A DNA stretch of 64,000 nt, taken from contig JAYWIR010000020.1 in NCBI GenBank assembly GCA_036172245.1, forward strand, positions 2,852,001-2,916,000. The letters are read 5' to 3'. The stretch comes from Raillietiella orientalis. Lineage: Eukaryota. This document shows, piece after piece, positions 7,532-32,429 of the stretch. The translations under genes and the position numbers were made by a program. Within the stretch, counting starts at the first letter, position 1; the number at the start of each line of letters is the position of its first letter. Under the pieces are notes generated by a model. The model did no database searches and had not been told where the DNA came from. It worked only from the letters and a program-made list of their open reading frames with translations.

Positions 7532-7579
<48 letters not shown>

Positions 7580-7735
7580 GTATATGCATATGCACAGTAT
7601 ATGTACTTATTGTGCATACATATATATGCACAATAAGCATATATTTTTTAATAATATTTCTAATATATATGAGCCCATATATAAATATGTGTATGAACAT
7701 CCATACTAAGTACGTATATTTACTTTTTGCGACCT
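7141..7735. repeat. AT-rich low-complexity block with (TA)n/(TATG)n microsatellite and imperfect inverted arms
   Basis: Sharp composition change; (TA)n(TATG)n at ~7532-7580; 7151-7226 resembles the reverse complement of 7624-7691. Confidence 0.75.
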
Positions 7736-7799
7736 TTCTAGATTGAGGCATTTGGGATTTCGGTCGTTCGTTATTTCGAAGCGGCCCCGTTTGGAAGAA

Positions 7800-9049: not shown

Positions 9050-9800
9050 CCAAACATCACGTTTCCAAATCGTCGATTTCAGTTTGCAATGGAATTAGAA
9101 GTGAACATCCGCAATTTTCTACACCTCACCGTCTGGTGCCGTCAAATCCCCTGAAGAGAATCCTGCCAACAGTCAGAGAGATGGGTTGGATCTTTTCGTT
9201 TCTTCTTAACGCTGCATGTGCTTCAACATGGCGGACAAGAGGAATATTTCTTCCCCACTTGATTTTCTCGCATTTTTTGTGTGTGTTTTATCAAGTCCAA
9301 CCAGGAGTAACCCACCGTTCTGAACTCGTCCTCAAAGAGCCACATTGGTACATCTTTCAATAGTTGCCCAGGTTGCCCTTGGACTCACTTTTTCAGCTGC
9401 CTGTTCACTTTTCAGAAATGTATTGACTCCATTAGTTTTACGAACTCTTCTTACGAATAGCAAGATTCGAGTGCTCTCTTCACTCTCTAAATTCATTTTC
9501 TTCTCAAGGTGGCATCTCGAAGATTTCCACCAAGACCACCTTCAAGTTAAGATGAAAGCAGAAACTGAATTCCGATGGAACTGACTATCCTTAGGAAGGA
9601 CTCGTCCTTAAAGAACGGAGTCAAGGCGCCATTCACCGAGTAGATGCCAGGTGGCCGGCTGCAACATGTGGTCCATGCAGCAAGCCAAAGTTTTCAAGAG
9701 GACCGCCGCGTCTTCGTGCAAAGCAGCCACCCTGTTGCAGATGGATTCGTGCCTGCTCCGTACGCGAGCTGCGGACCGCGACCTTGAACACAACGAACGC
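9050..9800 (+). mobile_element. RTE-like LINE C-terminal remnant
   Basis: Thumb-like LFRNVLTPLVLRTLLTNSKIRV, followed by degenerate RW and (W)AG..V..M motifs. Confidence 0.4.
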
Positions 9801-10119
9801 CAATTTCTTAAATTGAAAATTTATGATAGTCTGATTCTCCATTTTTTTTTTTTTTACCTTACGGTCACATCCCCTCTCTCTAGTTTCACAGGTTGAACTG
9901 TTAAGTTTCGTCATATTGATTTGTTTCCGGAGATAGACCCGGAGGAGAATGGGGGGAGAGACAGAAAAACGAGTTTTTTTTCTGTTACGAAACAAGACCG
10001 ACATCTACAAAGCATCAAACAGAACCAATACGGAGGCGGAACCCAAATCGCAGAACTCTGGAGGAAAACCTCGGCGACAGTTGGATCATGTTTTTCAAGT
10101 AGCTTCCAAAATAGTCCCG

Positions 10120-11450
10120 AAAGCGCCACAAAATGATGCCGCGGGGCTCGTGCTTAAAATGCGAGGAAGGTGGCCAAAGTATGGTGCTGCATCAAATGAC
10201 ACCTGCGAACGCTTTCGGGAAGCATACGCTTTGCTGATCACTTCAGCCTGTCGCTGGAAAGGCGGGGGAGATGTAACTTGCCGCCGGCATTTTCGAGGAA
10301 ATCACCAGCCAGCCTGCTTCTAAATGCACAGAGTGTTATAGCCGCAAGCAGGAAGTCCCAGCCGATTCGCCTCGAAACCACTTGCCCGCCATTTTCTTTC
10401 AACGTGCAGCCCAAGGTGCAAATCTCAAAGCACGCAAGTTGGCCTCAAGAGAAGATCACTCTCGATGCTGGACCTCGTTGAGTTTCCCGTCTTTCCGGCT
10501 GAAGATGAAAAGCAGGAGGAGAGAGATGCTAGGGTGGTGATAAATAAGGGATAGGTTCCTCAACAGTCAGGTCCGTTCCCCATCAGAACGGAGGGAGGAC
10601 AGAGAGTAATTTCTTCAGCAGAAGATGGTTCCGCGGCGAATAGGGAATAGGAAGGAAGTCAAGGTTCTGAACACAGGCGTGGAGAAGACTTGAGGCAAAT
10701 CTTTGGATCAGCTGCGTCAATTCGAGGGGGGGGGAGGGTAAAAGACAGAATTCCGTGGAGAAGAATTTTCATTGGAGACGCTTCGGGTGATGAAATAAAA
10801 GCAGATCCCAATCCATTTTGCTAGGGATGCTCTAGACATGACTTGGGATTGCTTCCAGCACATCCAGGGATGAAATAGGCGACCCACTTCTACGATCGGA
10901 AGAATTTCCTCCCTTATCATCCTTTTTCCAGTCTCTTGACTGGCTCGGTAACATCAGTGTGCGGATGAAAGAAGCATTTCTTGAATCATGGGGAAAGCAG
11001 TACTTTCATGTACGGATTGGCGATGACGATCGTCCTTTCCAATGAGTACTTTTGCTCAGCAAGGGTCACTGCAAACTCTTGAAGAGGAAACACACATGCC
11101 CACTCTACGGCATGACTCCGATCCCAACTGACAGCTTCCCTTTATGTGGAAACGGGCGACTGCGATTCGACGAGACGCCTCGCCGTTTTCAAATCTGCTT
11201 CCCGAGACCAACAGCCCACGGATGGGGTTTCTGCAGCTTCCCGTTTACCGCACGTTTCTTCGGATGAGATCATTCCCCAATTTCATGTTTCTTCCGAAGG
11301 CAAATGTCGATTCCAGAGATCATTCATTCCTGCTTCCGAAGACTTCGTGAGGCTGCACTACTCTTTGTGTAATTCGGTCGAGTGATCAGAGTTGGTCTGC
11401 ATTCCACCATCTTTCGCAGTCCTGGAGGCACGCCATCGTCCTGCATGCTG
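10120..11450 (-). mobile_element. R2-superfamily non-LTR RT fragment
   Basis: AEEITLCPPSVLMGNGPD (PI..EEI...APGPDG-like), SRVIF, VVSRRI, AF...G..EN and PKAFA occur in RT0-RT3 order. Confidence 0.6.
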
Positions 11451-12849
11451 AGATGTGATTTGGGCGAGTTTCGGGGATGAGGTACTTTCATCCTCGTCCC
11501 TTTTTTTCATTGCATCAGCCATCAGAGACGAACGCCGCCTGAACTTGAAAGAACGAAATGCACTCTCGAGTTACAGCTACAGTGTGCAGCTGCCTCCTGT
11601 TTGGAATGCGGTGCTCACAACGACCTGGTTCTCTGCATTTTCATTATGGAGAAAGGTGGAGATGAATTTTCTGATATCACCCAGATCGTATAAACGAGAC
11701 GGTGGGATGAAAAATAAACGAAAAACTAGAGTACAAAGAGAAGCATCAAGAGAAACTCCTGCAATTTCCATGGATACTGCATAGAACCGGAGGCATATTT
11801 TTGCATTATCTGCATCCATCATCGTGCTGGAAACCGAATCATAAGATGCATTCGGTGCTTTAAGCTGCACTTTCATCTTCCATCTCGACCTTCAGCTTCG
11901 AGATCACGCCTGTGATCCACTCTTTCATTACTTTGTCACTTCCCCATTCATTCCCTTTGCTTGTCAATCTTTTGCGAGTGCAGGGACTTATCGGAAAAGT
12001 GCCCCGCGACCCATCATCCCTTATTTATTACCACTCTGGTCTTTCTCTCTTCTTACTTTTCATCTTCAGCCAGAAAGTAGTTGGATGACTGCTCCGAATT
12101 CTGAAGGGATACGTGATAAACAAGTTCTTTGAAAAAAGAGGAGGCAAAGGAACACACACAAAAAAATATATATATAAAATCGCTCCCCCCCCCATTAAAG
12201 TCGCATTAGCTGACTTGCCCTGCCCTGCAGCGAGGGCGTAGAACAGCGATTTTCATTAGTTGTCACGAGAGTGGGGAACAAATATTTTTCGCCCTAGGTC
12301 CGTTTCGCGTTCGGTCTTCCCACTTTCGACCGCGCAGGAAGAACTTTTTGGAGGCGGCGCCGCTCGCGATTCCGCCCGTCGACCTGCAATGCCCTGCCGA
12401 CGGACAGCGCCGATGCCGAGAGAGCTCAGGATGGGGGGAAAACCATGGGGGTTTCCTCCAACTTTTGGAAGACACGAGCAAGAGAACCTCCTGAGGCTGC
12501 TAGGGATGCGCGGCGGAGCCAGGAGCGAAAACACCACGGAGGAGGCTCGCGAGAGAGTAAGGACGCTTCTTTTAGAGATTAAATAAATACATTTATCAGC
12601 TTCAACAAGAGAACCCGCCATTTGTGTGTGTGTATGTGTGTGTGTTTATTTTTTTTCTAATGCCTCGACTTCGCGAGGACGCAAACTGTCGAGATTCCGA
12701 CCTTCGTATCGACGAAGCATCGAAAAAGAAAGGAAGAGCACAAAAGCCAGGTCCGCTGCATTGCAAAAGAAGTGTTTTTTTTTTTTTTTTTGAGAAGTGG
12801 GGGGGAGGGGGGGAGAGACAATGGAGACGTTGAGAGAACAGACGCAAAA

Positions 12850-13350
12850 CTCATTTCGAAGGCTTATTGATTCGAACACGAGGAAACGAAGGTCGCGCAG
12901 TGCAAGAGGGCGGGTCTGCTTCGTAGTCTCTTGGAAAAGCGTGGCTCCTTTCTTCAGCATCGGGATTAACAGCAGGCATCCAACGGAACCGCCGGCTTCT
13001 TTCACGCTAGAGACGTCTCCGCCGCCGCCTCCTGTTCCTTTCCCTTCAGCGGCAATTCTGAGCTCGACATGGGTGAGGGCTCACAGCATCCTCGCATCTG
13101 AGGAACGCCTGCCATAAGGCGGATCGCCCAGCCGCTGAGAAGGAAAGGAACTCTCTGGTCGGAAGACCCGACCTTTTTGAGTTTCAAGCTCAGGCCGAGG
13201 ACCAAACCCGGAACTTCGAGGCTGGAAGGAGGACCGAAACTGCAAGTCCCCGCAACGTTGCTTTGTGAAGCAATGGAAGCACTTCCGGTTACAGAATGGA
13301 GAAGTTTCGGAATTACCAACCATTTTTCGAACATGGCTGTCACTTCTTTC
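12850..13350 (-). mobile_element. LINE RT N-terminal fragment
   Basis: LLIPMLKKG...TRPLALRD...VFESI matches the RT1-2 motif I.PI.KKG...YRPISL...K.FE. Confidence 0.5.
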
Positions 13351-13499
13351 ATCAGGCCTTGCCATCATTTTCTACCCTTCTCAATACGAAACAGGAACTC
13401 CAGAGCCGCTGTTGTCCTAACGTGGTCTTCATCGTCAGGAAGCCTGGATGACGTTGCGACCATCTGACCGCCCTTATTCTTCGCTTCACCCTGTCTGCC

Positions 13500-16400
13500 C
13501 TCCTTCTGCATTTGGTCGTTGCAGTGGAACCAACTGCTCTCTCTCGAGCAATTGATCGAGCATCCGTTTGAGGCAGCGCTCCAGCACCCTGACCCGCGAG
13601 GCGTGCGCTCTTGCCGGAAGCTTCCAAGAGATGCTTGCTGAAAACTCGGCATCCGCTCCCCAGTGCCATTGACGTACAACGAATTGCATCTCAATTTTGG
13701 GAACTTCGGTGCCCTGCCAATGGGGAGACTCGTTCTTTCTCCTGAGTCCCTTCTTCCCGGTTTCCTTTGATCCTCTGAGTTCCAGCTTCCTTTTGGGCCG
13801 TCATGGACGAACTTTTGTATCCCGAGCGTTGCACGCTTGAACGAACCGTTCCTTTCGTGATGTCACCGCATCCTTCGACCGATTCAAGTGCTCTTTTGGT
13901 GATGGAAAGATGCTACTGACGACGACTCGTTGGGGCAAGCGATGATGCCTTCCGTCTCCCTGGAACCCCACATCCATCTCGCTGTTTGCAATCTGCTCCG
14001 TGAACGGGTTGATTCACCCTCAGGCCCTCGATGATCCCACTGGGTCTCCAGCGCGATGGTTGGAAATACGTGGATTCAAGATTCGTCCTGCACCACACAT
14101 CGGCGAGTGCGATTGGCACCGTCCCTGGCGTGCGCTGCTCTGCAAAGAGCGCGAGCGGCTCTCTTCGAAGATTCAGCGACCCTGAGCGGATCAACTGGCG
14201 GTCCCTGAAATCTCAAGATTGGGGGCGGCTGAACGTTGAGCGTACCGACCATCCGATGCTATTAATCTCAGGTCGCTGCCTTCGAATTCGGTCGGAATGA
14301 AGTGCAGCGGGAGGAAGCCGTACCTTTTCTTGCACTGGATCGTTCGCGAACTGGAGGTGATTTTCTTCCTGGTATCACTTATCGCAAGTTGCATCTCCAG
14401 ATGTGATCTTGAGCTCATTCTTCCCCACGAGAAAAACACACACACACAAAATTCCAGTTGACTCCTGCCCGTAGTCGAGACAAACAAGCTAGACGCTTGT
14501 TTGTCTCGACTACGCCACTGGACCTATTAACTTGGATCCTGGCGCCCATTCATCCCAAGTTCCCATTCTTCGGTGTTGTGTCTGAACTCTTCTCCACTAT
14601 CGAACGCAGTATTCCTCACAAGAACCCCTGCACTTCTGGATCTCATGAAGCTTCTAATGAAGTTTGAAACAGTCATCTATGGCGAAGTTGTCGGTCTTGT
14701 CTGGTAAACTGGAAAGGCCGAGACACGCCCCTGAAAGATCAGAACACACGTGTTCTTTTGCAGCCACCTTTGATACATCTAAAAACTTCTCGATGAGTTG
14801 TCTCGTGGCTGTTCAAGAATTTCCAGCTCGCTTTCCCGAACGTTCCCCGCCGCTTCGAATGCACAAGGTCGGGGAAAGGACATCCACCTTTTGCTTTGGG
14901 AACAACGAGAAATCCACTATGGTCACTGCTTTCGAGTGGTCTTCCATAATGAAAAGTCTAGACTGAACGGTTTCCTTGGATACCTGTGCTGTGCACCGCT
15001 GCCACCAAGGTCGGGATGCCTGGTTCACCGATCCTAAAAGTCTGTTCCCTTGGTGTCAACACCCGAGGAATTCGCGAAGCCCACTCTTTGCTCCGGACAA
15101 CTGCGCGACCAGATCAGCGCGGGGCTGCACAGAGTGACTTCCGAAGGCGTCTCTAGCCTTCGGGGAATCGGCTCAATTGCCGGATTGAAGAGCAGGGAAC
15201 TGAGTGGGCATCTCTTCTTTACTACCCTGAGAATCCGGGTGTTCCTCATAGCTTGAGATTCTGCCTTCACGAAGATTTGCGCATCACTGCACACATCTCT
15301 TTTTACTATTCCTTCAAGGGATCCTCCCACTTCGCTTTTTCCCAAAGGGTTCCTCCATACATGCAGCACTCCTATGAAGAACTATGCCGAGCACCTCAAC
15401 CGATCCTCCGAAGCACAAGATCGCTTCGGAGGACTTCACGATTCCCGCAACGAAAAGAATTTTTCACGTTCAGCTGGCGGGAAGAGTTCCTTTCGCTGTG
15501 GGGGAAAAATGACCTCTTTGATCAATGATTCACTCTCGGAAGCTTCGAGAGAGGCGAGTTCGCATACAGGCAGTATCATGCGAGTTCCACCTCTTGGCAA
15601 CGGTATCCACGCAGCTGTTCCTCCAACTCTGAACACTAATTCCTGCAGCAGAACTGCCCTTGAGTTTTCTTCCAGTACGCTGGCGTTCTCCCAATCCGAG
15701 GGCTCACTTAGAAAACGGGAGCGAGCATCTCTGCTTCTGGAACCGCATCTTTGGATGATGCTCCATCCGATCCAGAGCGGGGTCTTCTGCTTTGTGTATC
15801 ATAAGGAGCTGCAGCGTCCCTCCCTAAAGATTCATCAGGGAAGAGAGGCCATTCCTCCCGATCCTGATCTTTTTCGTTATTGACAGGTGACTCTGCGATC
15901 TCGTTGCGAGGGCTCTTGAGGGATGCAGTGATGTGAGGAAGGAACACGAATCTTCCGTGAACCAGGATCGAGAAGCGTCTTCATCTGACGGGAACTGCGC
16001 TTCTTAAAGCGCTGAACGTTCGCTTTATCTTCCTCTCTTTTCTTTGGTTCTTTCCGATCCCATGTTTGCATCCTTCCACAATCTGTGACTTGCTAAGATC
16101 GGCTCGGAATGAAAATCCGGGAAAACTTGCAGCTCTTCTCTTTGTGGTACCAGGACGCAGGATCCGCTTCCGATGTCGTGGAGGGAGCAGGAGACGTTTC
16201 TTCCGGCGGGTTCCTCGAGTCCAAAGCAGTTCTCAGGACATCGCAGCAGTTCAGGAAAAAATCATTGTTTTGAACGCGAACTGTTTTGGACCAGGAATTC
16301 ACGACAGTTGCGTTTGCGCACTCAGTCCCTGTAAATTGATACGGAAAGGAAGGGATGAGATGGAATTTGAGGAGGGTGCACGAAGTATAAACTCGATGCT

Positions 16401-16670
16401 CGGAAGGTTTCCATGGTACAGACGGAATTTTTCATTTCCGGATCGGATGCGTGATCTGCCTCTCATCCTGTCTGCAGCCAGAGGACTCCTCATCTCCCCA
16501 TTTTCCTTGAATTCCTCAAAAGGTCTCAGCTTGATTGAGCGGAACGGAAGGTGGCAGAGCGCCTGGTTCCTGAGAGGCGAAACCATTTCCTTGGTTTCCG
16601 GAATTTGCTCAAGAATCCTCACCCTTCCAAGCAGGTCAGCAGGGAAGCAGGGGGGACATCTTCGCTAGAG
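13500..16670 (-). mobile_element. R2-superfamily (REL-endonuclease type) retrotransposon fossil
   Basis: PGP-like RT0 (~16290), VKKRCPLSSLLFNPAIEP (GVKQGCPLSPLLFN motif, ~15170-15225), and degenerate CCHC and REL C-terminus at ~13600-14000. Many frameshifts. Confidence 0.65.
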
Positions 16671-18694
16671 CATTGAATCTGTAAAGCATTGAATCTGTTC
16701 GAAACGGGGGAACAGCAGAGGCACGCATTTCTCCAAACCTTGGATCCTTGAGATCATACATACATCCAAACGCTGCACGGAAATGGAGAGGCCACTCGGA
16801 GAATGGAGATGCAATTATGACGTAAATAGATGTTGCGTGTGCACCATAATTCTAATGCACGTGGGAACAAATCGTAAAAGAAAGGCGGGACAGCTTAAGA
16901 GTTGGCTGATGGATCGGAATGCTCAGTACTGGATGACGGATGAAAAAACTTCAAACTCGTGGAACTCATCGAGCCAACGGAACTGGTGGCCAAAGAGAAA
17001 CAGACAGCTCGGGTGCTCTGAGACCGTTGCAGGAAGGGGGAGAGGGGGAGGGGAAGGCAGAAAAAGAGAAACGAAATGGAAGGGCAGAATCGAACGATTC
17101 GGATTAGTCGTGGAAGTAGAGAACTTGGCCGTCAGGATGCAACAGAAGGAACGCGAAATGGCTGGAAGAGGTTGGTTGGCAAGACTGGAAGAAGCTGGAC
17201 GCACCGTGCACTGAACGAAAACGAATGAGGAATAGGTATTCCAGGGAAGAAGAAGGTGGGATCACATTTGAAATTAAAGATGGATGCTTCCATTGTCAGA
17301 AACTACTTTGTAGAAACTAGAATATGATAACCGTTTCCTCTTGTCTTGTTCTTCCTGCCGATTTTCTGGTCAAAGTTATCCGCCTTGACCCCTTTCCATC
17401 CCTCCACTCAGTAAAAATGGAATGCGTGATAGCAAAAGTGCAGACCCTTGAAGACCCTTCCTCGTCTCATCAGCACTGCGAGAGGAAGGTGCAGCGGTAG
17501 CTAAGGCGCATGCAACCCGCCGGCAGTGACCACGGAACTCGGGTTTCGAGACTCTCAGAACGTTGAAGGAGGAATTCTGAACTGAAAAAAGCGAACTGAT
17601 TGGTGGATCCGGTCTTAAAGCTACCGGTAGGGATGTGCAATCATCACCATGTTGTCTGGCGGCCTCTTGAGCGGTTTGGTCCTGATTTTATTCGACACGA
17701 GTAGGTTTGGTGTTTGGTGGGTTGTTTTACCGGGTGAAGGTTTAGATTCTGCAGCATAAGACGTCAACGCTGCCTTCACCTGCTACTTGCTCGGGGGAAC
17801 TTTAGAATAGGCTGTTTGCTTTCGTTTTCGTTTTTAAAAGGGCATCTGCGTGGCGAAAAAGGACGTCCCAGTCCTCATCAAGAAACCAGTGGTGGAACTG
17901 AAAAGTTCCTTCTGCAAAAAAAAAAGATTAGATGGAAAAAGTAGTAACAAAAACAATAAGAAAAAAAAACAGAGACAGTCAAACTTAATATGAGAGTCCA
18001 AGATAAGCAACGAAACCCCATATGTTTTCTGACCAGTGGTAAATCATTATGCTGTGATCCTCACGACGCAGTTTCCTTATTCTTGAAACGGCCGGGGTAT
18101 GTCCTCATGAAGAAAAATTCAGTGAATCGGCACCCGCTGGTTTCGCCTCTGCTTCTTCTTTTCTCTCTTGATGACTTTGAAAGACGAACTGGATGGACGT
18201 AAAGAGCGGACTGCTTTGTTTGTTTCTTTGACAAGTTTCCGGTCCAAGATGAAGACATCCTTGGTGTAACGTTCGCGTTCAGTGGTCCTTTCACAGCTTA
18301 ACGTTGTAAGCGGCCGAAAAACTCTACGCGTCACTAGAACCAATGCCCAGAGATTCGGGCGCATCCTTAGCAGCCAAAGATAACCCTTTGAGGCAATTTT
18401 TTTTGCTTTTTTTTTGGCTGATAATAATTTTAGACGATAGTCGCGTGGATTTTTGATGCTGATCGGTCGTTGTGTGGAAAACACGCACATAAACGAAGCC
18501 TCCCAGAATCCTTCTTTGTGTCTCACAAGTCGCAGAAAGTAACCTTTGTACCCCAATTAGAGTCAGGACTCGTAATTGACAATCGTAAGTGAATTCTAAA
18601 GCGTCCTGGACAGCAATCGAGTGCAGCGCACGTGACGAAGCACTTAAGGTGAATTCCGGCCTGCTTTCCAAGTCATGCAACTGTCTAAACTGCG

Positions 18695-18745
18695 ATAAGC
18701 AACGATTAAATAGGGCTGCTGATGTCCTATTTAATCGTTGCTTAT
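18695..18745. repeat. Perfect 20-bp inverted repeat with 11-nt spacer
   Basis: ATAAGCAACGATTAAATAGG-gctgctgatgt-CCTATTTAATCGTTGCTTAT. Confidence 0.95.
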
Positions 18746-18849
18746 TGAAGTTATAATATCGCCCGATTCGGCATCAGCGCTCATTTAAGCTCTCCCAATT
18801 TTTTTTCGAGCATCTGCAGTCGCTCCAGAAGAAATCATTCCGCATCTGT

Positions 18850-19650
18850 TTCCTCCCCGGAAAGTGGACCAGATTGAAAAACGGAAGCCTCCAAGTGAAA
18901 AGGACTGCGAGGCCTTCACTTGGCGCTTTTTCTGCACCTTCGCGCTGAAGACGGCTTTCTCAGGAGGCGACGTCGATTAGCGAATTCACGGGAAAAGTGA
19001 TCTCCACTTCTTCGAAAGCCACTATTAATCACAGATTGCAATTCGAATCCGTAGGTGTTCTTAATTTTGCGCTCGAAGTAATGCGGAAATGCAGTCCTTT
19101 CCAGCCTTCTAGAAGAGGCAGGAATGGTGGCAGTCGAAGAGACCCAGTTGCACACTTTCCAAGCATCACTTTCGGTTCTGCGCCCGCCATGGAAGCTTCC
19201 AGGAGTGCCAGCAGCATTGGCTTTCTGAAGGGGATTTGTCGGGGACGAAGTTTTTCCCGGTAATGACGATGGGCGACAAGGAGCCTTTGAAGTTTTCCGC
19301 CGGGAACAACATTGCTGAGCTCATTAGAAAGCTCCCCGAAGACACGAGGACGCAACTGTCAAAGCTTTCGCGTTGGTGCGGAACGTCTCTTGAGTGCGTG
19401 TCGCCCGCCGTGCTCTTCAGCGTCGCTTGCGCGCGTGTGTCGTCGCTCTCAGTGAGCTCAGATGAGCACGTGAACAGGAAAGTGCTCCGGTTTCACGTTT
19501 CGCAAAGTGGTGTTTGCACAAAGGGCACTCAAGAAAGGGTCCATTTGCCGACCGTCGAACGTTTCCCAGCTGGAAGACCCTCTCCTTTCGTCCAGAGATT
19601 ACGTTCCAAAATACTCTTGCAGATGTTCGAGAAAGCGCGGGGCATGCGCG
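18850..19650 (-). mobile_element. R2-superfamily thumb/CCHC fragment
   Basis: VGKW, HHFAKRETGAL (FHA..DGGLG-like) and ARRCRK occur in the expected order. Confidence 0.4.
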
Positions 19651-20442
19651 TTTTTCACCTTCCCCCCCCCCCCCCCCATTACGCAGGAAAATGCGTCGAT
19701 CCTCGCATAACGCGGCAAAGCAGCCTCCCGCGCGGGCGCGCAGAAAAAAGAAAAAGAAAAAAAGCCCGTGGATAACACATTTCCAGCTTGCGGAACGTGC
19801 GGTTCCAGTTCAGCTGATTTTAAAAAAGAACAGGATTCGAGCGGGTTGAATTTCATTTCATTCAAATTTTCGCGAATCAGGGAGGGAGAGAGCGAGAAGA
19901 TACATTTTTCGACAAGGAGGACGGCAGAGAGGATACCATAGAACCTGACTGAATCTAAATGCTTTTTTTTTTTTTTTTGGCTTTACGTTAAATAGTAATA
20001 AATAGACAGTTCAATTCTTTTCTTCTGGTTTCAAAGTGGAATAGTAATAAATATTCTATGGCTATAATTTTTCAAGATGCGTTTTGCTATAGGGCTCGTA
20101 TAACGCGGGTTCGCGTACTGGGGACCCCACGTTTTAAGAGGGCTTACTGCACTCCTCTAACGTCTTCCGCCTCCTTGTTCGCTCTGCTTCCGTCGACTGA
20201 ACGAAAGGCAGAAGGAGCAACCATAGTCTCCACTTTCCCTGTTGCTATGACACTGGTATACTGCACCGTACTGTACTTGTGGCGATCATAAGGACTCAAA
20301 ACGGGAAGTGAATAATCGGCTCAAAAATAAATGAAACTTTCAGAACTTTTCTAGAAGGAAGGGACTTACATTTGATGAACTCTTTTCTTATTCTATTTTT
20401 TTCTCTATCATATTTTTACTTCTCAGTTTGACACAGTTTATT

Positions 20443-20830
20443 TATAGCCCTTCTCATAATAGGCCAAAAGAGGTAAGATGAGGATTTATAGTAGTGCAGG
20501 TAAAGATGCCAGCAGCGTGTAGTTATGACTGAAGCAAAAAGCAATGGAAGCTTTGGATGAAGGAGAAAGCATAATTTAAAGCCTGGACAAACTGTAATTC
20601 TCGATAATGTTGCTTTCCATAAATCAAACAAAGTCAATGATCTTGCTGAGAAAGTAGGTGCTGAAATTCTTTATCTTCCTCCTTATTCACCAGATTTTAA
20701 TGAAATTGAGCACCAGTGGTTTCCTATAAAAAATAGAGTTAGCAAAAATATCCCTATTTTTAGCTCTTTTCGTCAATCTGTAGATTCTGCGTTCCTTTGA
20801 TTATTCCTGACTATTATGAGAAGGGCTATA
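20443..20830 (+). mobile_element. Internally deleted bacterial IS630-family insertion sequence (endosymbiont/Wolbachia-like), 388 bp
   Basis: Perfect 20-bp inverted termini TATAGCCCTTCTCATAATAG / CTATTATGAGAAGGGCTATA including the TA target. The N-terminus MPAACSYD..QKAMEALDEGES (ATG 20506, frameshifted) is fused to an intact C-terminal frame 20573-20800: NLKPGQTVILDNVAFHKS...LYLPPYSPDFNEIEHQW...VDSAFL*, with D-x34-E spacing. Confidence 0.92.
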
Positions 20831-21949
20831 ATTTGAAACCAAAAAACCAGCCATAAGAGCTCTTGCTTATTTTTGCAATTTCAGCAAAAACTTTGTTTTT
20901 GGATATTCTTTTCGCATGACAAACCGCGAGAGGAGTTGAATCAACATAAGAAATACCTGTTTCTTTTGCTTGCTCACATAACCATTGCAGCAACATTGCT
21001 AAATACCATAGAACCCGAGGACCTCACTCTAAGAATAAGGTATTGTAGAAGATACTTCAAAGTTAAGGCCCTTGAAGCCGGATGAGCACTGAATCCAGTA
21101 AGGAGGATTGGAGAAAATTTAGAAATGATCAGAACAGATCAGGGATGTGATAGGTCGAGCATCTAAATTAAGACACATTTATTAGCATGGCATAGGCGTT
21201 GAGGTTATTGTCATGGATCATTTCATCATCCGCCGGATCAATACAGCCCTTTTACCGAATGTTTGTGTCTTTCTGCCTACTCGGTCCGCCAACAGGTCAC
21301 TCGAAACTCAGCTTCTTCGACGAGACTTCAGGAAGATCGCTCTGTATTGTTCCTTTGGAGCCTCATGAGCTCGCTGCATCGATCAGCACTTTGTAATGAT
21401 TCTTGCATTTGAAAACTGCTTTACTGTGGATCTCACGGGATGCTGGTACCTTCTCCCGGTCGTTGTAATTGTGCACGCACTTCATCCTGTGCCAGTAAGG
21501 TCAGCTCCTTCGTTTCCCAAGTGTTCTTCCTGAGCTCCGGACTCTGTTTCTCATCCCTCCCCAATTCCTGCTGATGCTAATCGAACCTTTCGCACCTTAA
21601 CTTGGAACTTTAACGCAACATTTCGTCGCGAAGAATGCTTTTCAAAGTACGGGGGCTGGAAACAAGTCATCAACTGTGACAAGCAAAGGTCAGTCAGTGT
21701 TACAGTCGGACAGTCTCCAGTTCATTCCTCTGACCAATGAAAGCTTCTTCGTTTTCTTCACATTCCAAGGTATACCGAAAACCGAGATTCACGATGCCAG
21801 TGGGAAAATGGCTGTTGACTGGCTGGAAACCTAGAGGTGGAGATGGATGGAAACAGAGGAAGATGGAGATGAAGATTGGATGGAAGAAAGCAGAACCCGA
21901 ACTGAATATCCCGAAAAGATAATGCAATCAATGGACAACTTCACGCAAA

Positions 21950-23500
21950 GCAACAAACAGTGCCACAGCGATAAGATGGGGCCTACGGAAAAACTCAAAT
22001 GGTAACGTGCTAAACAACGGTAAGGGAGTCTGAAGAAACCATCCGGAGCAAAGGGCACGTTCTGATCCAAAGAATCAGGGATCCACAGTGCTCACGTGAA
22101 AACAAGAAAAGAAGAAAATGGAGCAAAATCAGTGTTCTCAAGCAAAGAAGTATAAGCTTTCACTTCATTGGCGCTTCGACGAGCAGTTCAGCAGACAGGA
22201 AATGCAAGACTCAAGCTGAACGAGGAAAGCGATGGACTTGGAAACCAAAAGGAAGATGCCTCGAGATGAAGAAACGATTTTTCTCTCGAAAATCGGGAGG
22301 GTGCACCTCTCTTTCGCCGCAACGGAGTCACTCTGTTCGGAGATCGGAGACTGAGCTCAGTCAATTCATCACTGTCTAGTATGAGGAGGAGTTCGAAGCA
22401 GAAACAAAGACAAATGGTGCTCATCGGAACCATTCTAACTCGCCTTCGGAATCCTCTAAAAATGTATCAGGATTTTTATTCACCTCTTTTTGAATTGGTA
22501 GGTGAGGTTGTGTCGACAGTAGTGGTGGAATGTGGATTGAAACACACCTATCCGAATGTTTAGATGAGTGTGTGTGTGTGTTTTTTCCCAAGTGTAAGGA
22601 GTGTTCCTGAAGCGTTGGGAATGGGTCCATTGAAAGATGACCGCCCGTTCGAACGGGATGGGAATTTCACGCGCGTACTTCTCAAAATCCTCTCAGTCGG
22701 AACTCGGTCTTCACATATTTGCCACCGCAGGAGAGGGGACAGCTGAAAAGCTTTGTTCGCGGAGGTCTTGCTGCCACCTACTGGAAGTTTCTCCCCCTCC
22801 CCCAAAATGGATTTCCTGGAGAATATTCGAGAGCACGACCCAAAGGCGAAACGGGGAAGGATATTACAGTCTGGCACTCGAGAAAGCTGTCAACCGACGA
22901 GAGTATTTCAGGGAATCGAAAGGAAAATTGAAATGACGAAGAGTAGCAGATAAACAAAGGAAAAAGGATTCTGAGGGAAGAAGGAAAAGCGCGAAGGGAA
23001 CAACAGTTATTCCCCAAAGCAAAAAACCCTTCATTCACAGCGTGGAGGAGATCCGACGGACAAGCTGTAAAGGTTAATTATCTTGGAGGCCTGGGAACAT
23101 GCGGTCATCCGTTTGGGGGAAGCGCACTTGCATTCGGTTGCATCAATACAAGTGGAAGAACGCAGCTGTTGCCTAGATTTACCTTCGCACAGGAACAGAA
23201 CGGGTTCCCCGTGAAGAGGAAGATGGACCTCCGGGAGGAATGGTGAACAAACCCGAATGTTCGTCGCCTCGTGTTGGACATGACGGCAACCGAGCAGAGA
23301 ACCTAATCGGAAGGGCGGTGGGGAGTCGACTCACGAGCGGAAGCGCCAGGAAACGCGCAAGGAAGGGGATTGGCGCAGCGGGAACTGGGGAGGAAATACG
23401 TCCAGCCCATTGCAGTCAGGGAAACACTTGGATTGCAGCGCCGACTAGGCATGCGCGGCAAGCGACGGAACGACCGCCACTGTATCTTGAATCCTAAATT
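21950..23500 (+). mobile_element. Decayed LINE reverse transcriptase (clade unresolved)
   Basis: Ordered remnants: FR (~22312), DF..LFELV (DF.KAFD.V-like), RRGDS (QGD-like), KDITVW (DDI-like) and VNYLGG (~23074-23090). Confidence 0.5.
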
Positions 23501-25579
23501 GGTGCGAATCCCATTCTGAGACGGGAGCTAAGGAACCCATTCTGCGCGTCCCCATCTCACAAGATCTCTCGCATTCCTAGCGCTCGCCGGACGCTGTCCA
23601 GCGATCGTTAAGGCCTTCCCTGGCGGAATCGTGAATTCGTGACCAGCCTCGAGTTTCGCAAATTTCAATCTGTCAATAATATTCAGGTCGTGATGCTCAT
23701 ACTGCGGAGACCGATGCCTTCGCTTTTCTTTTGCACCTGAATTGTCTTTGGCTCCATTTGTGAATTCCTGTTCTCCCTCGCTCTCTTCTCCACGTCCCCC
23801 GTTGGAATACCATCTTACAAGATCATGATGGGAAGAGGATGCGAGGTTGGTGCGCAGATTCTTCAAGAACTGTGGGAATGAGGAGCGGGCGGGGGATGCA
23901 AATCAGGACTCTTCCTCAGTGAGAAGTTCGGAAGTTGCTTCGTCGAGAGAACAAGGAGCACCGTTATACAACTGAAGCTTCTTCCTATGAAAACACTCCG
24001 TGCAAGAAGCAGGAATTTGATCCGAAGAGCGGAACGGAAAGTGTTCCCGTGGTCCAAGTCGCACAGTGTGTACGAAACAAGCAGGAGGCAAGTTCCGAGT
24101 GTCAGAACGAGATGGAACAAGGCCCTCTATTCTGGAAGTCCGGCAACGACAGGCGCGCACCTCGGCTTGACACCCGGTTGCGCCAGGGTGTTTACGCACA
24201 TAAAAGAAACTTGCAAGTCAGTGGCAGGACGCTTGGTCCCTCCCCGTCACAAATGTAACCATGGGAACCTGCCGAGAACCAGTGCGAAGGGCCGGCCAGG
24301 TTCGCCTCGGCAGCGGGGGATTGGGAGCGGGGAGGAGGGGGGGACGAATGAAACAAAAGAGTACGTACGCAAAAAATTGGGAGGGTTCGGGAAGGAATCA
24401 CCAGTTGCTGGAGGGTGTCCTCTGCATCCTGGATAGGATGACTGCAAGTTCCTGACTCTATCCTCAAAAACAGGACCGCGAAATGGATGGGTCCCTGGCA
24501 CCGTGGCCTCCTCTGGCATTGCCCCATGCAGCCACGATCCCGCATAGGCAGCTAAGTGATGCTAGGGATGCGGCCGGTGTGGGGGCTTTCGCGCAGGAAG
24601 AGGCGCTTCAGGATGTCTTTGGGGTTGCTCTCGCAGATTCCACAGGGACGCGGCAAAGCGCTCCCATAGGGACCGGAGGGCAACACAGTCCACGAGTAGT
24701 GGGGGAGGGCATCTCTTTCTCCGCACCTGCTGCAGTTCGGACTCGCACTCCCCCGGGTCCAGTGGTGTCGGCAGGTGTGGCACAGCAGTCCGCTGTGCGA
24801 TGGTCCCAGTGCAATGGCCTCATTGCAGGCGCATCTTGGAAGAGAAGCGCAGCAGCCATCCAGTCCAGGGAAACCCGGCAGTCCTCGAAAAACCTTCAGG
24901 GACCTTTCCACGTGCTAAAAAAGAGAGCACACGGGGCACCGTTGGAGCAAGAAATTCTCGTCCTTGGAACCGTACCCGTGAGAGCAGACCTTCCCAGGAG
25001 ACAGTGGCCAATGATCCGCGCCCGCGGGTTAAGAGCATCGCGCAGCAAAGCCCAGCTTCTAGGACCATGTCCTTTCAGAACAACGAGGTCTGCTTTTGCG
25101 ACGGCTTCGAGATTCGGCTCACAGCAGACGGTGGTTTGGAGCCTGTGAGGCACTGCCTTACCGTTTGCCTCCCTCTTGCCTCATGATCGGAAGGAACGCT
25201 CGTCGTCGCACCTGCTGGATGGGCCGGCGGCGGTCAGGGAGGCTGATTTCTGGAATGCTGATTCTCAGCGGCCTTCAGTAGACGGGAGCGCGCTCCCGGA
25301 AAGACTACGGAAAGAGGGGGGAGAAGGGGGGTTTGAAGAGGGTATTGCTCGCGTCCTATCGTAACCTCCCCCAATGGGGAGACCCCCAGCGACGGATTGA
25401 TAACTTGGCGACGAGGGCGCTGCCCATCCTGGAGCAGGTGCTCCCAACCTCCGGAGAAACGTCCTCATTGGGTGCGGTGGAATGCGTCGAGAAGATAAAG
25501 GACGAATTTCTCGAGGCTCCACCCTACTCTCCCCAAGCTGTGGTGCTCAAGATCTGACCAGGGACCAACAGATTGGAGG

Positions 25580-26260
25580 CCGCGTGGTTGCGATCCCCCC
25601 ACGCGTGGTGGCATCGAGCGTCGCGGGTTCAAATCCCGCCAGGGAAGGATCGACGCCGAGAAATGGGGGCTGCGTCGTGAGTTGCGAGTCCCCTCCCCTC
25701 CCCTCCCTCCTCCCCAGCAGGATGACGCTAGTCGGCCTTGTAAGCTTCGGGCACGGCTCCGATGGAAGCCGAGTGCCCTCGTTGACTGGCCGCGATTGAA
25801 AGTTCACCCTCCGGGATCCTTCCAGGAATCAAGGATTTGATTCCTGTTGTGCAAATTAAGCCGTCCTCATTCACCCCTCGGGGTGAGGGGCCCTCCACCG
25901 AGTGCCAGACGGAGCTGGTGGGATTCTCTCCTGTGTCCAGAAGCGCTCTGCTCCCTTCGAGGAGCGGTCTCCATAGACATTGGGAAGCGTCCCTTCGGCG
26001 CTCCCTTTAGAGGAGGAAAACCAGGAGCGGATCCCTTGCGGGTGCCCTCTGGAAAAGAAATTCCAAGAGTGGATCCTTCTCCGGGCTCCCTTCGGAGGAG
26101 AAGCGTGGAGTGGTCCCACCTCCGGGGGTTCCATCCGGAGAGAATAAGAAAGAGGATCCCTTCGGGGTTACATTCGGGGATAACCAGGACGATGGTCCCC
26201 TTCGAGGCTCCCTACCAAGCGCAACGGGAACTGACACTTTCCTATGGAGGCTTCCCGGAT
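25580..26260 (+). mobile_element. Hairpin-rich tRNA-headed SINE-like element nested in LINE copy 2
   Basis: B-box GGTTCAAATCC at 25626-25636; the body is colinear with 57853-58548 (e.g. CCAGGAATCAAGGA / CCAGGAATAAAGGA; GGAAGCGTCCCTTCGG; CAGGAGCGG.TCCCTTGCGGGT.CCCTC.GGA.AAGAAATTCC). Confidence 0.7.
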
Positions 26261-26480
26261 TCGTAAGTTGGCTCCTCCGCGGTTGACCCCTAACTTGAGG
26301 AGTGACACGCACCCTCAGGCGGCGAGCAGCAGTGTTAAAGTTCTTTAACATTGCTGCTCGTGAGGACTTGTCAAACCACCAGAAAGAATTCCATCATGGT
26401 GAACATCATTTCCATCAACAAGGCATCAACGCCAGCAAGTCTTCGGAGATGCCATGGTCCGCAACCCACTCAAGATACAA

Positions 26481-27380
26481 TGGACCTCGTCTACCCCCCT
26501 TGCTCCGGTGCTGCCCTCCCTGAAAAATGCAAGGGACAGCATGATCCCGGCAAGTGACATGCTGCTTACCAGCAAAGACGAAGCTTCTGGGGGCGCGGAC
26601 AGCTCGGGAAGTGACGGACAGCTGCCACCCCGAGTGTCCCACTCCAAGGACTTCTACGCTGGGGTGAGCTGCTCGACATCCCCCCGGAGTAGGTGAATTG
26701 CTCCCCCCGCAGCGTGCTGGAGCAGTGGCGCCCTCCTCCTCGAGTGGCACGTGTTGGCGTTGCTGGTGTTGCATGGGGGAATCCCGTGCGCAGCGCGCCT
26801 TCACCACTGGACACTGAGGAGTGCGACTGGTGCGCGAGGGTCTCCATCTTCCCGCTGCTGTTGGACCGTGCTGCCCTCACATCCCTTTGGGATCGCCTCG
26901 CGGCGACTCTAGGAATGGCCCCAGCGACGTTCGGAGGGAAGCCCCAGGGACGTTTTCAAGGTGCGTTCCCCGCAGTCCTTCGCCATCTCCGCGGGATCAC
27001 GGCGGCCTGGGACGCCGGAAGAGGAGGCCGAAACGGCAGGGACGCCATCCACTGGGCGCGGATCTTCCTGAGGATCGCCTCGAGATGACCCCACCTGGGG
27101 GCGAGACACGGACGGAACTTGCCGGCACTCTGGGAAACAGGATGCAGAGGGAGCCTGGCAGCGTACCGTGTGACCCCTTTCTCGGTCTTCCCTCCCCGTG
27201 TACGATTTCCCCTCCCCTGTTTCGTTTGTTTGTTTGTTTTTGTTTTGTTTTCCCTTCCCCCACGCTGCCGAAGCGGTCCTCGCCGGTCTGCGTGCCGCTC
27301 TTCGGCAGGTTCATCGCGCGTGGTAGAACCCACGGTCTCATTACATCAATGTATCTTCGTTGCCTTATGTAACGAAATGC
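26481..27380. repeat. 900-bp inverted duplicate of 2541-3440
   Basis: See 2541-3440. Confidence 0.95.
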
Positions 27381-29479
27381 CCCGGAGTAAGCGGGCGATA
27401 ATCATAGCGACCGTTCTGGAAGGATCTGCGATTTGAGGTGTTTGAAAAGAAGGGGGAAATGGGACCGTAGCATGGAGACGGGGATACGAGGGCGATCCCA
27501 TCGGCTTGCAGCGCAACAGGACTTTGAAATGCAACCTTCTTTGCCCCCGTTCGTCTTGCCAAACCACCTCCCAGGCACAAGCGGTGTCTCTTCTCGCACA
27601 GCCAACGTCTTTCTCTCACGCTCGAGATCACCACCCGGCGAGGAAGCGGTTGAAGAAGAGAGAAAGAAAAGGGAAGTGGTTAGTCCCTCCCCTTTTCTGC
27701 CCGGGCCCCGTGGTGCCTAGCGTAATGGCCATTGGCTTCATCGATCACGGGAGCACATGCTCAAAGAGCGAGCCCGGCACTTGCGACTGGAAAGGGTGTA
27801 TTGAATTGCGCCGCGGGCTATCTAGGAGCCCCTCACAAAGCGGCTTTCCGGAGCCGCGCCCGCATTCAACAATGGGGTCCGCCTGTCACAACATTGGTCA
27901 GGGGAAGAGGGAAATCGGATACGAACAATGGTACCTCGTGTCGACATCCTGTCTCCTTGAGAGAGCACTTGGAAAGTCGGTCCTAAATGCGCTCCCAGCG
28001 CGCACCGTTGCCATGGCAGATGTTTTCGAGCGGTCGTGTCCTGCTCGCTGGTCCCTCGGCGAGAACCCTCGGGGAGGAGGAAAGAGAAACGAATGGCGGG
28101 AGCGGAAGATGAGCGCGAGGATGGAGGGATCCCTCCAGAGGCAGGCAGCCAAGAGCCATATTTCTCTCTCCGTTGTCAGCGCAGACGGAAACATTAGGGG
28201 TCGCACCTTTCCAGGTCTCCCGGAGCGTTGATCTCCGATGCTGCCGAGGAACCTGGAGATGACAGAACTTGAGCTTGTGGTTACACCGAATGGTCCTTGT
28301 CCCTGCTTCCTCGCACCATCCTGATCAGGATTGTCCTACGATGCTGCGAGGTCATGACCCTTCCATGTCGAAGGGGAAGGGGAAAAACGAAATCCGGACC
28401 GGCTGAGACCAGTGGGAAAACGCAGGATTCTGGAACTAAAGACAAACTCTGACTCGAGCTCTTGAAACAGAGGTTTCTTCGTGCACCCAAACGTTCAGTC
28501 TTTTGTACGCACCAGCCAGGAGGTCGCGCAACGGTTATTGGTCAGCAGCTGGATGCCATCAACCGCATTCGGAGACCGGCATGATCTGCCAAGATGTTCA
28601 TCTAGGATGCCGGGATCACCGATGGTCTCGATTGATGGAATGAAGGTTCTGCATCACAAAGATGGCGCCTGCGCTCCCTGCACGGTTTGACGAAAATTTC
28701 CTGACATTGGATTCAACGACGCGTCCCTTCCCTAGAGTCTGTTTGCGCGTGCAAGCGACCGAACCGTGCCACTGTGCTTCCTGTTTTGCTGCATCAACAA
28801 GGCAGTGTGGACTGCTGAAGAGAGAACGACACTCTGGACGCATCATCCCTCCACCCAGAAACGAACTCTTTGAGGTGCGCCTATGTGCGGTGGATCTTTC
28901 CATTTCTTCTGCTTTTCTTTTCTTTTCTTTCTTTCTTTCTTTTTTTACCCAATTCGCCATCAGACGAATTCCACGAGACTTAAAGTGTGAGTGGAAGAGG
29001 ATGGATTCTTTTTGAAGTTGCTCCTGTCATCTCTTTAAGCTGTGATTCCGGTTTTCAAGATGAGGACTGTTTGAAATTGCTTGCTGAAAAGCCCTATTGG
29101 TCCTCGGAGTGATTCAGAATGCGAGGAATTTTTCCCCTTTCGTTCCATGGATAGCGCACATCAGCAGCCCATTTATTTGGGCCTGAACTGACACTGCAGT
29201 ATGCATCATCCTTTAAACTTCTAAAGGCATCCTCGACTGGTGAGGGTAGGAAGAAAGGTGTGCATCATTCCGTCATAAGGAATGGCGAAACTATTTAAGA
29301 AAAACATAACTGCATCGTTGGTACAAATTATGCTAACATCAGCAGAAGTATTTTTTTTTTTTTTTTGAAAAAATGAGATTCCTTTTTTTCTAAACATGTG
29401 ATCACTACTCATTTGTTTTCAAATGTGATATTTTCCTTATCTCTTCTAGTTTTTTTTTTTTATAGACTCTTGGCCTTTA

Positions 29480-29800
29480 CAAAATGCCTGCTTTCCAGAT
29501 GCGCTTCATCTCAAGGAATCACCTCAGCCTTGATTTCGTTTCCTATTTTTGGTTGCTTGAAGTTCTGCGGCATTCCAGACGTGCTCGGATTTTTCACATG
29601 CTGGAGTTGTTAAAAAGTGCCCATCTAGTAGGCCAGTTCGAAGCAGCAGTGGCAAATCTTCTCCCCAGTGTGTTCTTCTACCCCCAGATTCGGTATCCTT
29701 TCCCTTTGCGTCGTGGACCTCATTTCTTTACCCCTGCTTTCAACAGAGAATACAAAAATGAGAACGTGGAACGTCTCCCAAGTGGAAAGAACCACTTGGG
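29480..29800 (+). mobile_element. Possible Gypsy integrase remnant
   Basis: ANLLPSVFFY resembles the W...LP.VLFAYR motif; weak. Confidence 0.25.
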
Positions 29801-30042
29801 AGACGTCACGCTTAAAAGGATTGACGGAACCATCATCCTTTCGAGACTTCTCAAAGCTACTTGATTTTTTGGAAAAGCTGGAGAAAAAACTCCCGAGCAC
29901 AGTTGTCTTATTCATAATAAACTATCTACACAGCATTCTATAAGCTCTTTTTGCCGAATGAGTCATCAGAAAACCGAGCCATCAACAGCTGATAGATTAT
30001 TTACGTTAAGCTCCACCTAACCAATGCTCCAATACTTAACTA

Positions 30043-30366
30043 CAGTGCACATTCGATGTAGTCTCCTTTGATAAAAGAAACTTCGGCCGTAAGCAGCCCT
30101 GGTGGTTGTCAACATTTTCAAGTTCTCCGCCATTCGATGAAAGGAACTTTTCCCGACCGCGTTCAAGTCGAAGAGGGAACGAAGGTCAAAGTGCCGTGTT
30201 CGAAATGTAACGTGGACAAATCAGCAATTTCGAAAATCGTGAAAAACGAAGAGAACTCGGAGGCCCGCGGTCGCCTCACGCTGTGATGTTCCGAAACACC
30301 GAAGAATGGGGTGACCGACCATCCATTGAAATGTCCCGAAATGGAACGAGCTCCACATTCGTAATC

Positions 30367-30401
<35 letters not shown>

Positions 30402-31202
30402 ACAACAGCGGGGCTTGGAAAAAACCACCACGACAAACGAAATCTTGAAGTGGAAGGCCAAGGAAATTCATGTTCGGTTGGGATGGAATGGGGAATGTCC
30501 GGCAAGGGGTGGGTGGCAGCTGAGCAACTTCAAGAAAAGACATGGTAGTCGCCTATTGACCATGCCCGGGGAGAAACTGTCGTGCGAACGAAACTGGTGC
30601 CCTCACGGGATCCAGTTTTCTTAGAAAAATTTAGAGAGATGCTTGATGAAAACCAATATCTAATGGAGCAAGTCTGTAATCGTGAAGAAACAGGACTGGT
30701 GTACAAAGGATCACCAAATAAAACGAATGCTCATCGAAATGAAGTAACAGCCCCTGGGAGGAAAAATAGAAAGGAAAGGGCCACTTTGAAATACCTGCAG
30801 CGATGCCAAATTTGATATGGACAAAGTTATTGACCACTCATTCCATTTAGCTATGGAGTGGTCAGAAAGTGCCTGCCTTCCTGTCCGTGATGTTCTTCTC
30901 CCGAGAAGAATACCGGAAAAGGCAGTCGTGAAGAAGTTTGAATAAAATTTCAGATCGTATCGTCATCATCATTTACCATACACCATCGTTATTTTTACTT
31001 TTGCAATGTTCATTAAATTTGTTCATTCGATTACAAAAATTCATGCAGCTGTCCCACAATTTGGTTTCTTTCATTTAATTGTCCAAAATTATTTTTTTTC
31101 TATTTTGACACAACCCATCTCGATGCAATCAACAACCTTCTATAAAGGCAACATTTTTGAAATTTCGATTCCAGCAAAGGTGACTCTGTCGAATGAGCAC
31201 TG
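30043..31202 (+). mobile_element. Tigger/pogo-family DNA transposon, internally deleted
   Basis: TA-flanked imperfect TIRs CAGTGCACATTCGATGTAGTCTCCTTTG / CAAAGGTGACTCTGTCGAATGAGCACTG. Remnants of psq-HTH (VDKSAISKIVKN), CENP-B HTH (GW.LSNFKKRHG) and DDE_1 start (EQVCNREETGLVYK...APGRKNRKERAT). Confidence 0.85.
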
Positions 31203-32429
31203 TACCTGCATCATTCGACCGCATTCTTCGACATTTATGTTGGCAAGCTCTACCATGAAATCATCTTGTGGACGAGGTGACCAGGATCGGTTCGAGGTGT
31301 TGCTGACCACCCCACCCTTTCCAGGATTTGTTCCGAGATTGATTGGCAAATCAAGCGGATTTAGCAGCCTGATTATCAAACCCGGAGCAGGTGTCAGGAA
31401 TGATTGAGGAAACCAGCAACCGTGGCTGAAGCTGAACCCACAAGCTCAGAGATTGAAAAATAAAAATGAAAATTACAGATTCAAAAATGAAATTCAACAA
31501 AAAAATTACCAAGAAACAAAAATAAGTAAATAGCTTATGCCATGTTTTGACATATCCAGCAGTATGTTGTAGCATATTGCTCCATGATTGCAAGCTGATA
31601 AAGGATTTCTCTTTTTTTTTTTTTTTGGCTGATACTGAATTGAATCAGAAGGGATGTAAAGATTCAGAATTCGAAAGTCCAAGGTTGAGGACATCATTAG
31701 AGAGAACTGTAAAGTATGTATGATCTAAATAAACACAGAGAATTGCCTCTATGAATCTGAAGTTCACTCATCTTAATGATCAACTTTCAACTTAATGATT
31801 AGTAGTCGAAAAAGAATTCCTAGACTTTGCTTTTCTGTCGAGACATCTGAGAACGCACTTGAAGTTTCTGTAGGTTCCTGGTGAGGATTTTTCAGCTGGG
31901 ATTGCCAGAGACGCTAGGGCCAGGAGTTTAAATTCTACGAAAGTCCAAAAAAAAATCATGGGAAATTATAGGTAGAGAGAAAATACCAAAAAATTTTAAT
32001 GCAAAAAAAAAAAAATGACGCTCTTGGCACTTGGGAGAGAAAGACGAACAAAATCTCGTTCCTAGAAAAACGGATGTGTGGAGTCGTTACTCACTGTATG
32101 TTTTAGATGCCTAAAACGTTAAAAACACGTCGTCAGCATGGAAAGATCGAAGTTATTATCATGGATTATCATCCAGAGAGCTTGTAATGAATAGGAGCAC
32201 GAAATCAAACATGAAGCAACTGAAGCGTCGACCTTGATGATGCGCTTAAACCCTTTCAGAACTTCTTATTGACGAGGACGTTGAAGAAATCATGGGCTAA
32301 AATAACGTTTTGAAACCTTTCCGTGTCAGAGGTTTTGAGAAATCGGGAAATCATGCACCATGGAAATGAATCAGCTTGAAATTTAAAAGCACTGAGACCC
32401 CCACAAAAGTATTAGTTACTTTGGGGGTG

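Follow-up and report, generated by a model that had tools for sequence, protein, structure and literature searches.

Roughly 630 bp within a eukaryote-like contig (positions 20391–21022 of the window, our term for the whole stretch of DNA analyzed, 64,000 nucleotides from Raillietiella orientalis) most probably represent a small piece of a Wolbachia chromosome that became integrated in the genome of a eukaryotic host, a reading to which we assign a probability of about 80%. The recognizable Wolbachia-derived patch is a mosaic of three dead insertion sequence (IS) pieces. At its center lies the interval 20443–20830, which, judged from its sequence, is a Wolbachia-type IS630 element made non-autonomous by an internal deletion; it is adjoined by the tip of an IS256-family element on one side and by an internal fragment of an IS982-family transposase gene on the other (Table 1). 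For the IS630 derivative, transfer of DNA from symbiont to host is the best reading at the level of the assembly. An initial annotation of this DNA had proposed horizontal transfer from an intracellular symbiont, possibly by true transposition into host DNA; we retain the first part of that proposal and abandon the second, since both TA junctions of the element are bacterial.

Table 1. Features of the IS mosaic and of the surrounding window
Feature	Position	Strand	Description
IS256-family tip	20391–20444	-	terminal ~54 bp; reads inward to lower coordinates; outermost ~8 nt of the inverted repeat absent
Mini IS630-family element	20443–20830	+	388-bp non-autonomous internal-deletion derivative, outer TA on each side included
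Left terminal inverted repeat	20443–20462	+	first TA (20443–20444) probably the duplicated target
Transposase N-terminal remnant	20506–20570	+	MPAACSYD, in-frame TGA, then KAMEALDEGES in another frame
Transposase C-terminal remnant	20561–20800	+	open for 79 codons from stop to stop; second D and E of the DDE triad
Internal deletion junction	20570–20575		~546–550 bp absent relative to a 934-bp element
Right terminal inverted repeat	20811–20830	-	last TA (20829–20830) probably the duplicated target, within a TTA Leu codon of the IS982 fragment
IS982-family transposase internal fragment	20831–21022	-	192 bp, ~64 codons, ending at GFKL
Rgp1 / RAB6A-GEF complex partner 2 exon	49257–49700	-	Pfam 1.2e-14

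Architecture of the mini IS630 element

The initial annotation had read perfect 20-bp inverted termini beginning with TA at the ends of this element, and we found the same. The two arms (20442–20462 and 20811–20831) each comprise 21 nucleotides and are 100% complementary (20/20, or 21/21 over the full arms); terminal inverted repeats are a feature of the IS630 family. With up to three mismatches allowed, the terminal 20-mer TATAGCCCTTCTCATAATAG, which starts with TATAGCCC, matched the window exactly twice; both matches were exact, one on each strand, and lay at the ends of the element, and a match was present in 0 of 100 shuffled versions of the window. A TA dinucleotide lies on the outer side of both ends, a form shared by all 14 of the Wolbachia copies compared, whose flanks are unrelated, and this TA is either a duplication or part of the repeat. 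Wolbachia IS630 elements bounded by inverted repeats start with TATAGC and finish with GCTATA in all 14 cases, and because their flanks are unrelated, this is the pattern expected of TA duplication.

Between these ends the element is severely reduced. Our reference for the size of the deletion was a 934-bp Wolbachia IS of the same architecture (locus L001, positions 1322–2255, from the endosymbiont of Psylliodes chrysocephala), to which the mini-element aligns over the first ~128 bp and the last ~256 bp at 83%–84% identity. The alignment bears out the large internal deletion that had been noted at the outset. Sequence spanning the deletion junction was found in none of the 150 matches listed in a comparison with 60 Wolbachia-genus genomes, in 0 of 98 Anaplasmataceae genomes at up to three mismatches, and, as an exact match, nowhere in metagenome_contigs.

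What remains of the transposase gene is broken at its N-terminus, again as first described. The residues MPAACSYD and the stop codon that follows them are encoded at 20506–20532, and KAMEALDEGES is encoded at 20538–20570 in a different frame; aligned to the Wolbachia copy L001, a T-to-G change makes the TGA, and the window is one base shorter. The C-terminal remnant is without a start codon and includes neither the DNA-binding domain nor the first D of the triad. It is identical to a Wolbachia IS630 transposase at 60 of 74 aligned positions, ungapped, and carries the transposase homology of the IS630 family in the form of a Pfam DDE_3 domain (62.9 bits; cut-off 28.6). The NCBIfam IS630 model also matches (65.1 bits, 7e-18, profile positions 218–292 of 299), with a score that lies under the full-length cut-off of 100 because only a fragment remains. 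By hand count, the C-terminal open reading frame (ORF) has D(34)E spacing between D15 and E50, which, as judged by the motif, we take to be catalytic residues of the DDE triad. Both the open C-terminal frame and the D34E spacing reported in the initial annotation are present, with 74 of the 79 open codons aligned. The element does not qualify as autonomous, in that a complete DDE triad and an intact transposase are missing: approximately 550 bp are gone, including the first D, and the N-terminal part is interrupted by a stop codon and changes frame.

The 79-codon open frame does not deserve annotation as a host gene. A 977-aa protein of the aphid Cinara cedri (P0010) contains an IS630-like DDE_3 domain that is 69% identical to the window remnant, and this protein may be a further case of an IS fragment from a symbiont that was taken for a host gene in annotation.

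Wolbachia relatives of the element and its flanks

We scanned the 79-aa C-terminal peptide against one genome per prokaryotic species, which returned 58 loci. The best six of these (81% amino acid identity) all fall in a single genome, that of the Wolbachia endosymbiont of Psylliodes chrysocephala; the next-best loci are cyanobacterial (60%–68%), and the sole locus from a non-Wolbachia member of the Anaplasmataceae (L045) reaches 59%. A large protein database contained no protein more than 80% identical to the C-terminal remnant. Overall, the nearest Wolbachia copies are 76%–81% identical at the amino acid level and 83%–90% identical at the nucleotide level.

Comparison at the DNA level covered 60 Wolbachia-genus genomes, at species level, with five to seven candidates scored per genome, a depth at which weak matches may escape. 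A match was present in 50 of the 60 genomes, and all 150 listed matches lie within 20436–21020 of the window. Identity to Wolbachia IS630 copies is 83%–90% over the part left of the deletion (20443–20571) and 83%–86% over the part right of it (20572–20830); the best matches reach 87%–90% on the left and 86% on the right. The 20-nt end occurs exactly in 10 of the 60 genomes, including 31 copies in one of them (G002), and the reversed control pattern gave 0 matches in the same 60. Searches of other collections were negative: the 20-nt end had 0 matches in viral_contigs, the end extended by 3 nt had 0 in metagenome_contigs, and blastn of 20300–21200 against a plasmid collection returned no match.

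Wolbachia has deletion derivatives of its own: three of the 14 IS630 elements bounded by inverted repeats are shortened forms, of 254, 783, and 860 bp. The shortest of these (L093, positions 204–457, in G002) resembles the window element in being short, bounded by inverted repeats, flanked by TA, and devoid of an intact transposase. The window element differs from such Wolbachia mini-elements in its deletion junction, and a second copy of it was found neither in the window nor in the 98 Anaplasmataceae genomes nor in metagenome_contigs. Another locus of G002 (L094) contains three IS630 ends on the same strand at positions 152, 602, and 1052, exactly 450 bp apart, which suggests a tandem array of a truncated element.

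These relationships uphold the initial assignment of the element to a Wolbachia-type IS630 and speak against a relic of a eukaryotic Tc1/mariner transposon, an identity to which we give next to no chance. IS630 and Tc1/mariner are related superfamilies according to Gilbert and Cordaux, who surveyed prokaryotic transposable elements in eukaryotes (PMC3673617). Members of the two groups have TA targets and DD34E-like spacing. Yet both halves of the window element are 83%–90% identical in nucleotide sequence to Wolbachia IS630 copies, its ends are identical to theirs, and the NCBIfam IS630 model matches at 7e-18. The best matches of the C-terminal peptide are likewise Wolbachia IS630 proteins and not eukaryotic Tc1-like ones. 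With its closest DNA and protein relatives both being Wolbachia IS630 copies, we rejected a eukaryotic identity.

The initial annotation erred in holding that no other bacterial gene flanks the element. To its left, 22 of the 27 Wolbachia matches obtained in a search of 436–20435 fall within 20391–20444 and come from 14 of the 60 genomes. Identity of this IS256 tip to the Wolbachia copies is 86%–89% overall (49/55, or 89%, to L091; 48/54 to L090; 47/53 to L089), and ORF remnants of the L091 element match NCBIfam IS256 at 1.8e-16 and 4e-12. The tip is cut where the IS630 element starts, at a TA: all 10 Wolbachia termini compared continue into a conserved 9-nt tail (AACACTCCC in eight, AACATTCCC in two), and the window has the IS630 end instead. 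To the right of the element, the IS982 fragment scores 69.9 bits against Pfam DDE_Tnp_1_3 (cut-off 27) and 65.1 bits against NCBIfam IS982 (profile positions 50–116 of 243), and is 82%–90% identical to Wolbachia DNA, at best 170/189 to L099/L071. The left-hand TA thus falls within a Wolbachia terminal repeat of the IS256 family, and the right-hand TA is part of the leucine codon in the GFKL motif of the IS982 fragment.

The two flanks, an IS256 terminus on the left and IS982 interior on the right, are not contiguous with each other. We considered and rejected the notion that the mini-element simply interrupts one IS982 copy; the left flank neither continues the IS982 gene nor is an IS982 end. 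Such non-contiguous bacterial flanks need either IS-mediated rearrangement or insertion into IS debris that was already degraded, both of which are routine in Wolbachia chromosomes. The chimeric junctions themselves, IS256 tip to IS630 and IS630 to IS982, were each found in 0 of the 60 Wolbachia-genus genomes. At one locus of the Psylliodes chrysocephala endosymbiont (L066), a full-length IS630 (116–1037) lies ~50 bp from a full-length IS982 (1087–1959), an arrangement which indicates that IS630/IS982 neighborhoods exist in living strains, though its orientation differs from that in the window.

Route of entry and host context

The position of the two TA junctions bears directly on how the element reached its present site. 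Both are embedded in DNA of bacterial origin, which means that host sequence was not the target of its transposition; the flanks proved to be symbiont DNA, an outcome that the initial annotation had itself named as telling against the transposition part of its proposal. We therefore regard transposition of the mini-IS630 into nuclear DNA, be it host DNA or a Wolbachia patch already integrated there, as highly unlikely, and the same applies to its amplification in the host as a miniature inverted-repeat transposable element (MITE). Perfect termini, TA on both sides, and little decay speak for such an event; formally, the site before insertion could have consisted of an IS256 tip joined to IS982 in degenerate form, with one TA between them, and one paper proposes that Wolbachia ISs can bring flanking DNA into a eukaryotic genome (PMC10083226). 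Against it, the sequence that surrounds each TA junction is bacterial IS and not host DNA, and the perfect ends and the TA are equally explained by transposition in the bacterium before transfer. The element is present in a single copy in the window, which contains no intact IS630 transposase and no IS630-like sequence other than this remnant. The earlier idea of MITE amplification finds no support in the one copy present in the 64-kb window, in the absence of the deletion junction from 98 Anaplasmataceae genomes, or in its absence from metagenome_contigs. Mobilization after arrival in the nucleus, for example at a TA in an integrated Wolbachia patch, or the existence of a host MITE family elsewhere, accordingly has a very small probability in our estimate; if true, it would mean that an IS of bacterial origin had transposed within animal chromatin.

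Passive transfer of a Wolbachia fragment accounts for the mosaic in a different way. The deletion and the present neighbors of the IS630 derivative would have been acquired inside the bacterium, although the three junctions concerned were found in 0 of 98, 0 of 60, and 0 of 60 bacterial genomes. There, full-length IS630 copies could supply transposase in trans, and IS-rich regions would be subject to constant rearrangement. Its later entry into host DNA would have been passive, with non-homologous repair as the presumed mechanism. The patch is probably inert in its present location: it has neither a start codon nor a DNA-binding domain, the first of the catalytic aspartates is missing, and no source of transposase is evident.

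Of the two marks of a nuclear Wolbachia transfer, the patch shows derivation from Wolbachia; host DNA on both sides in one molecule is what the assembly suggests, given an Rgp1 exon and the absence of Wolbachia similarity from the remainder of the searched window. The window contains 84 ORFs that run for 120 aa or more between stops, and only the one encoding this exon passes the Pfam cut-off. Its single database match is a fish RAB6A-GEF partner protein; the identity is only 44%, which suggests thin coverage of the host lineage in the protein collection. A search of the window against Rfam produced no match. Against the 60 Wolbachia genomes, we found no credible similarity at 436–20390, 21023–41020, or 41021–61020. 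Seven weak matches (5 + 2) fall outside the patch. Those at 7488–7585 and 30366–30403 are simple repeats, and three further ones, at approximately 2422–2468, 7215–7257, and 7366–7420, have E values of 3e-4 to 8e-4.

Base composition sets the patch apart from its surroundings. GC content is 30%–39% over 20300–21050 vs 47%–59% further out, and the zone of low GC reaches a little beyond the recognizable patch, with shoulders at approximately 20300–20390 and 21023–21200 (GC 30%–41%). These AT-rich shoulders had no match in the Wolbachia genomes, and Pfam searches with 12 short ORFs from them gave nothing above cut-off. They could be donor DNA from an unsampled source or host sequence, and the insert may accordingly be longer than the recognizable patch.

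We infer integration from the assembly, and a rival to it is an artefact in which the assembler wrongly placed reads of a live Wolbachia infection in a host contig. Repeats of the IS kind are a well-known cause of such errors. The patch is nevertheless only ~630 bp long and internal to the contig, and over 20 kb of sequence that is not Wolbachia lies to either side. Its pieces, of 54, 388, and 192 bp, are not intact IS copies with neighboring bacterial genes, and no other Wolbachia sequence was detected in the searched window. We consider an artefact of this kind improbable.

Several other repeats also occur in the window. A GC-rich repeat of ~900–925 bp is present in inverted copies (2516–3440 and 26481–27405) that are 99%–99.7% identical, lie 23 kb apart, and bracket the Wolbachia patch; the same ORF in both copies gives the same sub-threshold Pfam match, to "Megourin". 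Two further pairs are probably host repeats: an inverted pair of ~400 bp (30808–31206 and 40097–40489; 95% identical, ~9 kb apart) and a direct pair (25980–26188 and 58264–58478; 77% identical).

Age, donor, and comparison with known transfers

The remark in the initial annotation that the element is little decayed fits the pattern of substitutions that we observed. Between the window and Wolbachia copies, dN/dS is 0.16–0.32 for the IS630 C-terminal remnant and 0.12 for the IS982 remnant (compared with L066), and among Wolbachia copies themselves it is 0.18–0.41. As far as these coding remnants can tell, the divergence of the window from known copies looks mostly selected rather than neutral. 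Moreover, neither 20-nt end departs from the consensus form of Wolbachia; by our own arithmetic, 40 unchanged end sites would have a probability of ~0.015 under 10% neutral decay. Because dN/dS lies in the Wolbachia range and the ends are unchanged, the patch appears to have undergone little neutral decay since it left the bacterium.

The identity to the nearest sampled copies, only 83%–90% at the nucleotide level, argues that the donor is unsampled and suggests that it carried IS variants absent from the sampled Wolbachia genomes. A bacterium closely related to Wolbachia, and not a Wolbachia strain itself, could have been the donor. That it was some other intracellular bacterium sharing these IS families, such as another member of the Anaplasmataceae, one of the Rickettsiales, or a Cardinium-like symbiont, strikes us as unlikely. 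The modest identity (83%–90% nucleotide, 76%–81% amino acid), the horizontal movement of IS elements among bacteria, and the 60%–68% amino acid identity of cyanobacterial IS630 copies are in its favor. However, the best matches of all three independent pieces are in Wolbachia-genus genomes, where the 20-nt end is found letter-perfect; the one Anaplasmataceae locus outside Wolbachia (L045) stands at 59%; and copies within a single Wolbachia genome vary as much as the window does from them (window vs G002, 75%–82%; window vs G049, 72%–84%).

Dunning Hotopp et al. are said to have reported on Wolbachia-to-host transfers in 2007. Such transfers are widespread, with an estimate of more than 70% of hosts cited by Miao et al. 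(PMC10083226). The same paper describes an ISWpi4-containing "sequence X" with Wolbachia flanks on chromosome 7 of Aphantopus hyperantus, for which IS-driven transfer is proposed. Like sequence X as described there, the window patch is Wolbachia-derived and AT-rich, lies in eukaryotic sequence, and contains an IS flanked by more Wolbachia DNA. Unlike it, the patch is very small (~630 bp), is built entirely from the debris of three IS families, lacks any ordinary Wolbachia gene, and has junctions known at the level of the assembly.

The IS families on record for Wolbachia include all three of those found here (IS630, IS982, and IS256), which are abundant in wPel, and Cerveau et al. give the share of non-functional Wolbachia IS copies as 63%–100% (PMC3205602). 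Two IS630-family groups named in that paper, ISWpi10 and ISWpi11, are candidate relatives of the window element, which belongs to the same family and shares with sampled Wolbachia IS630 copies the 20-nt terminal repeat (10 of 60 genomes), the TA flanks, and a homologous transposase C-terminus. The window element departs from the sampled Wolbachia IS630 copies in being 83%–90% identical in nucleotide sequence and in having lost ~550 bp of its interior. Its flanks share families with ISWpi16 (IS982) and ISWpi15 (IS256) of the same source, a likeness at the family level only, and unlike these two ISs they are fragments, of 192 and 54 bp.

The window case is best read as one more small nuclear Wolbachia transfer, unusual only in being pure IS debris. 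It is no demonstration that a bacterial IS transposed in the genome of a eukaryote, and it makes a small addition to the catalog of symbiont-to-host transfers. If the contig is sound, a Wolbachia strain with variants of IS630, IS982, and IS256 that are unsampled among the 60 species-level genomes was, or still is, present in the host lineage.
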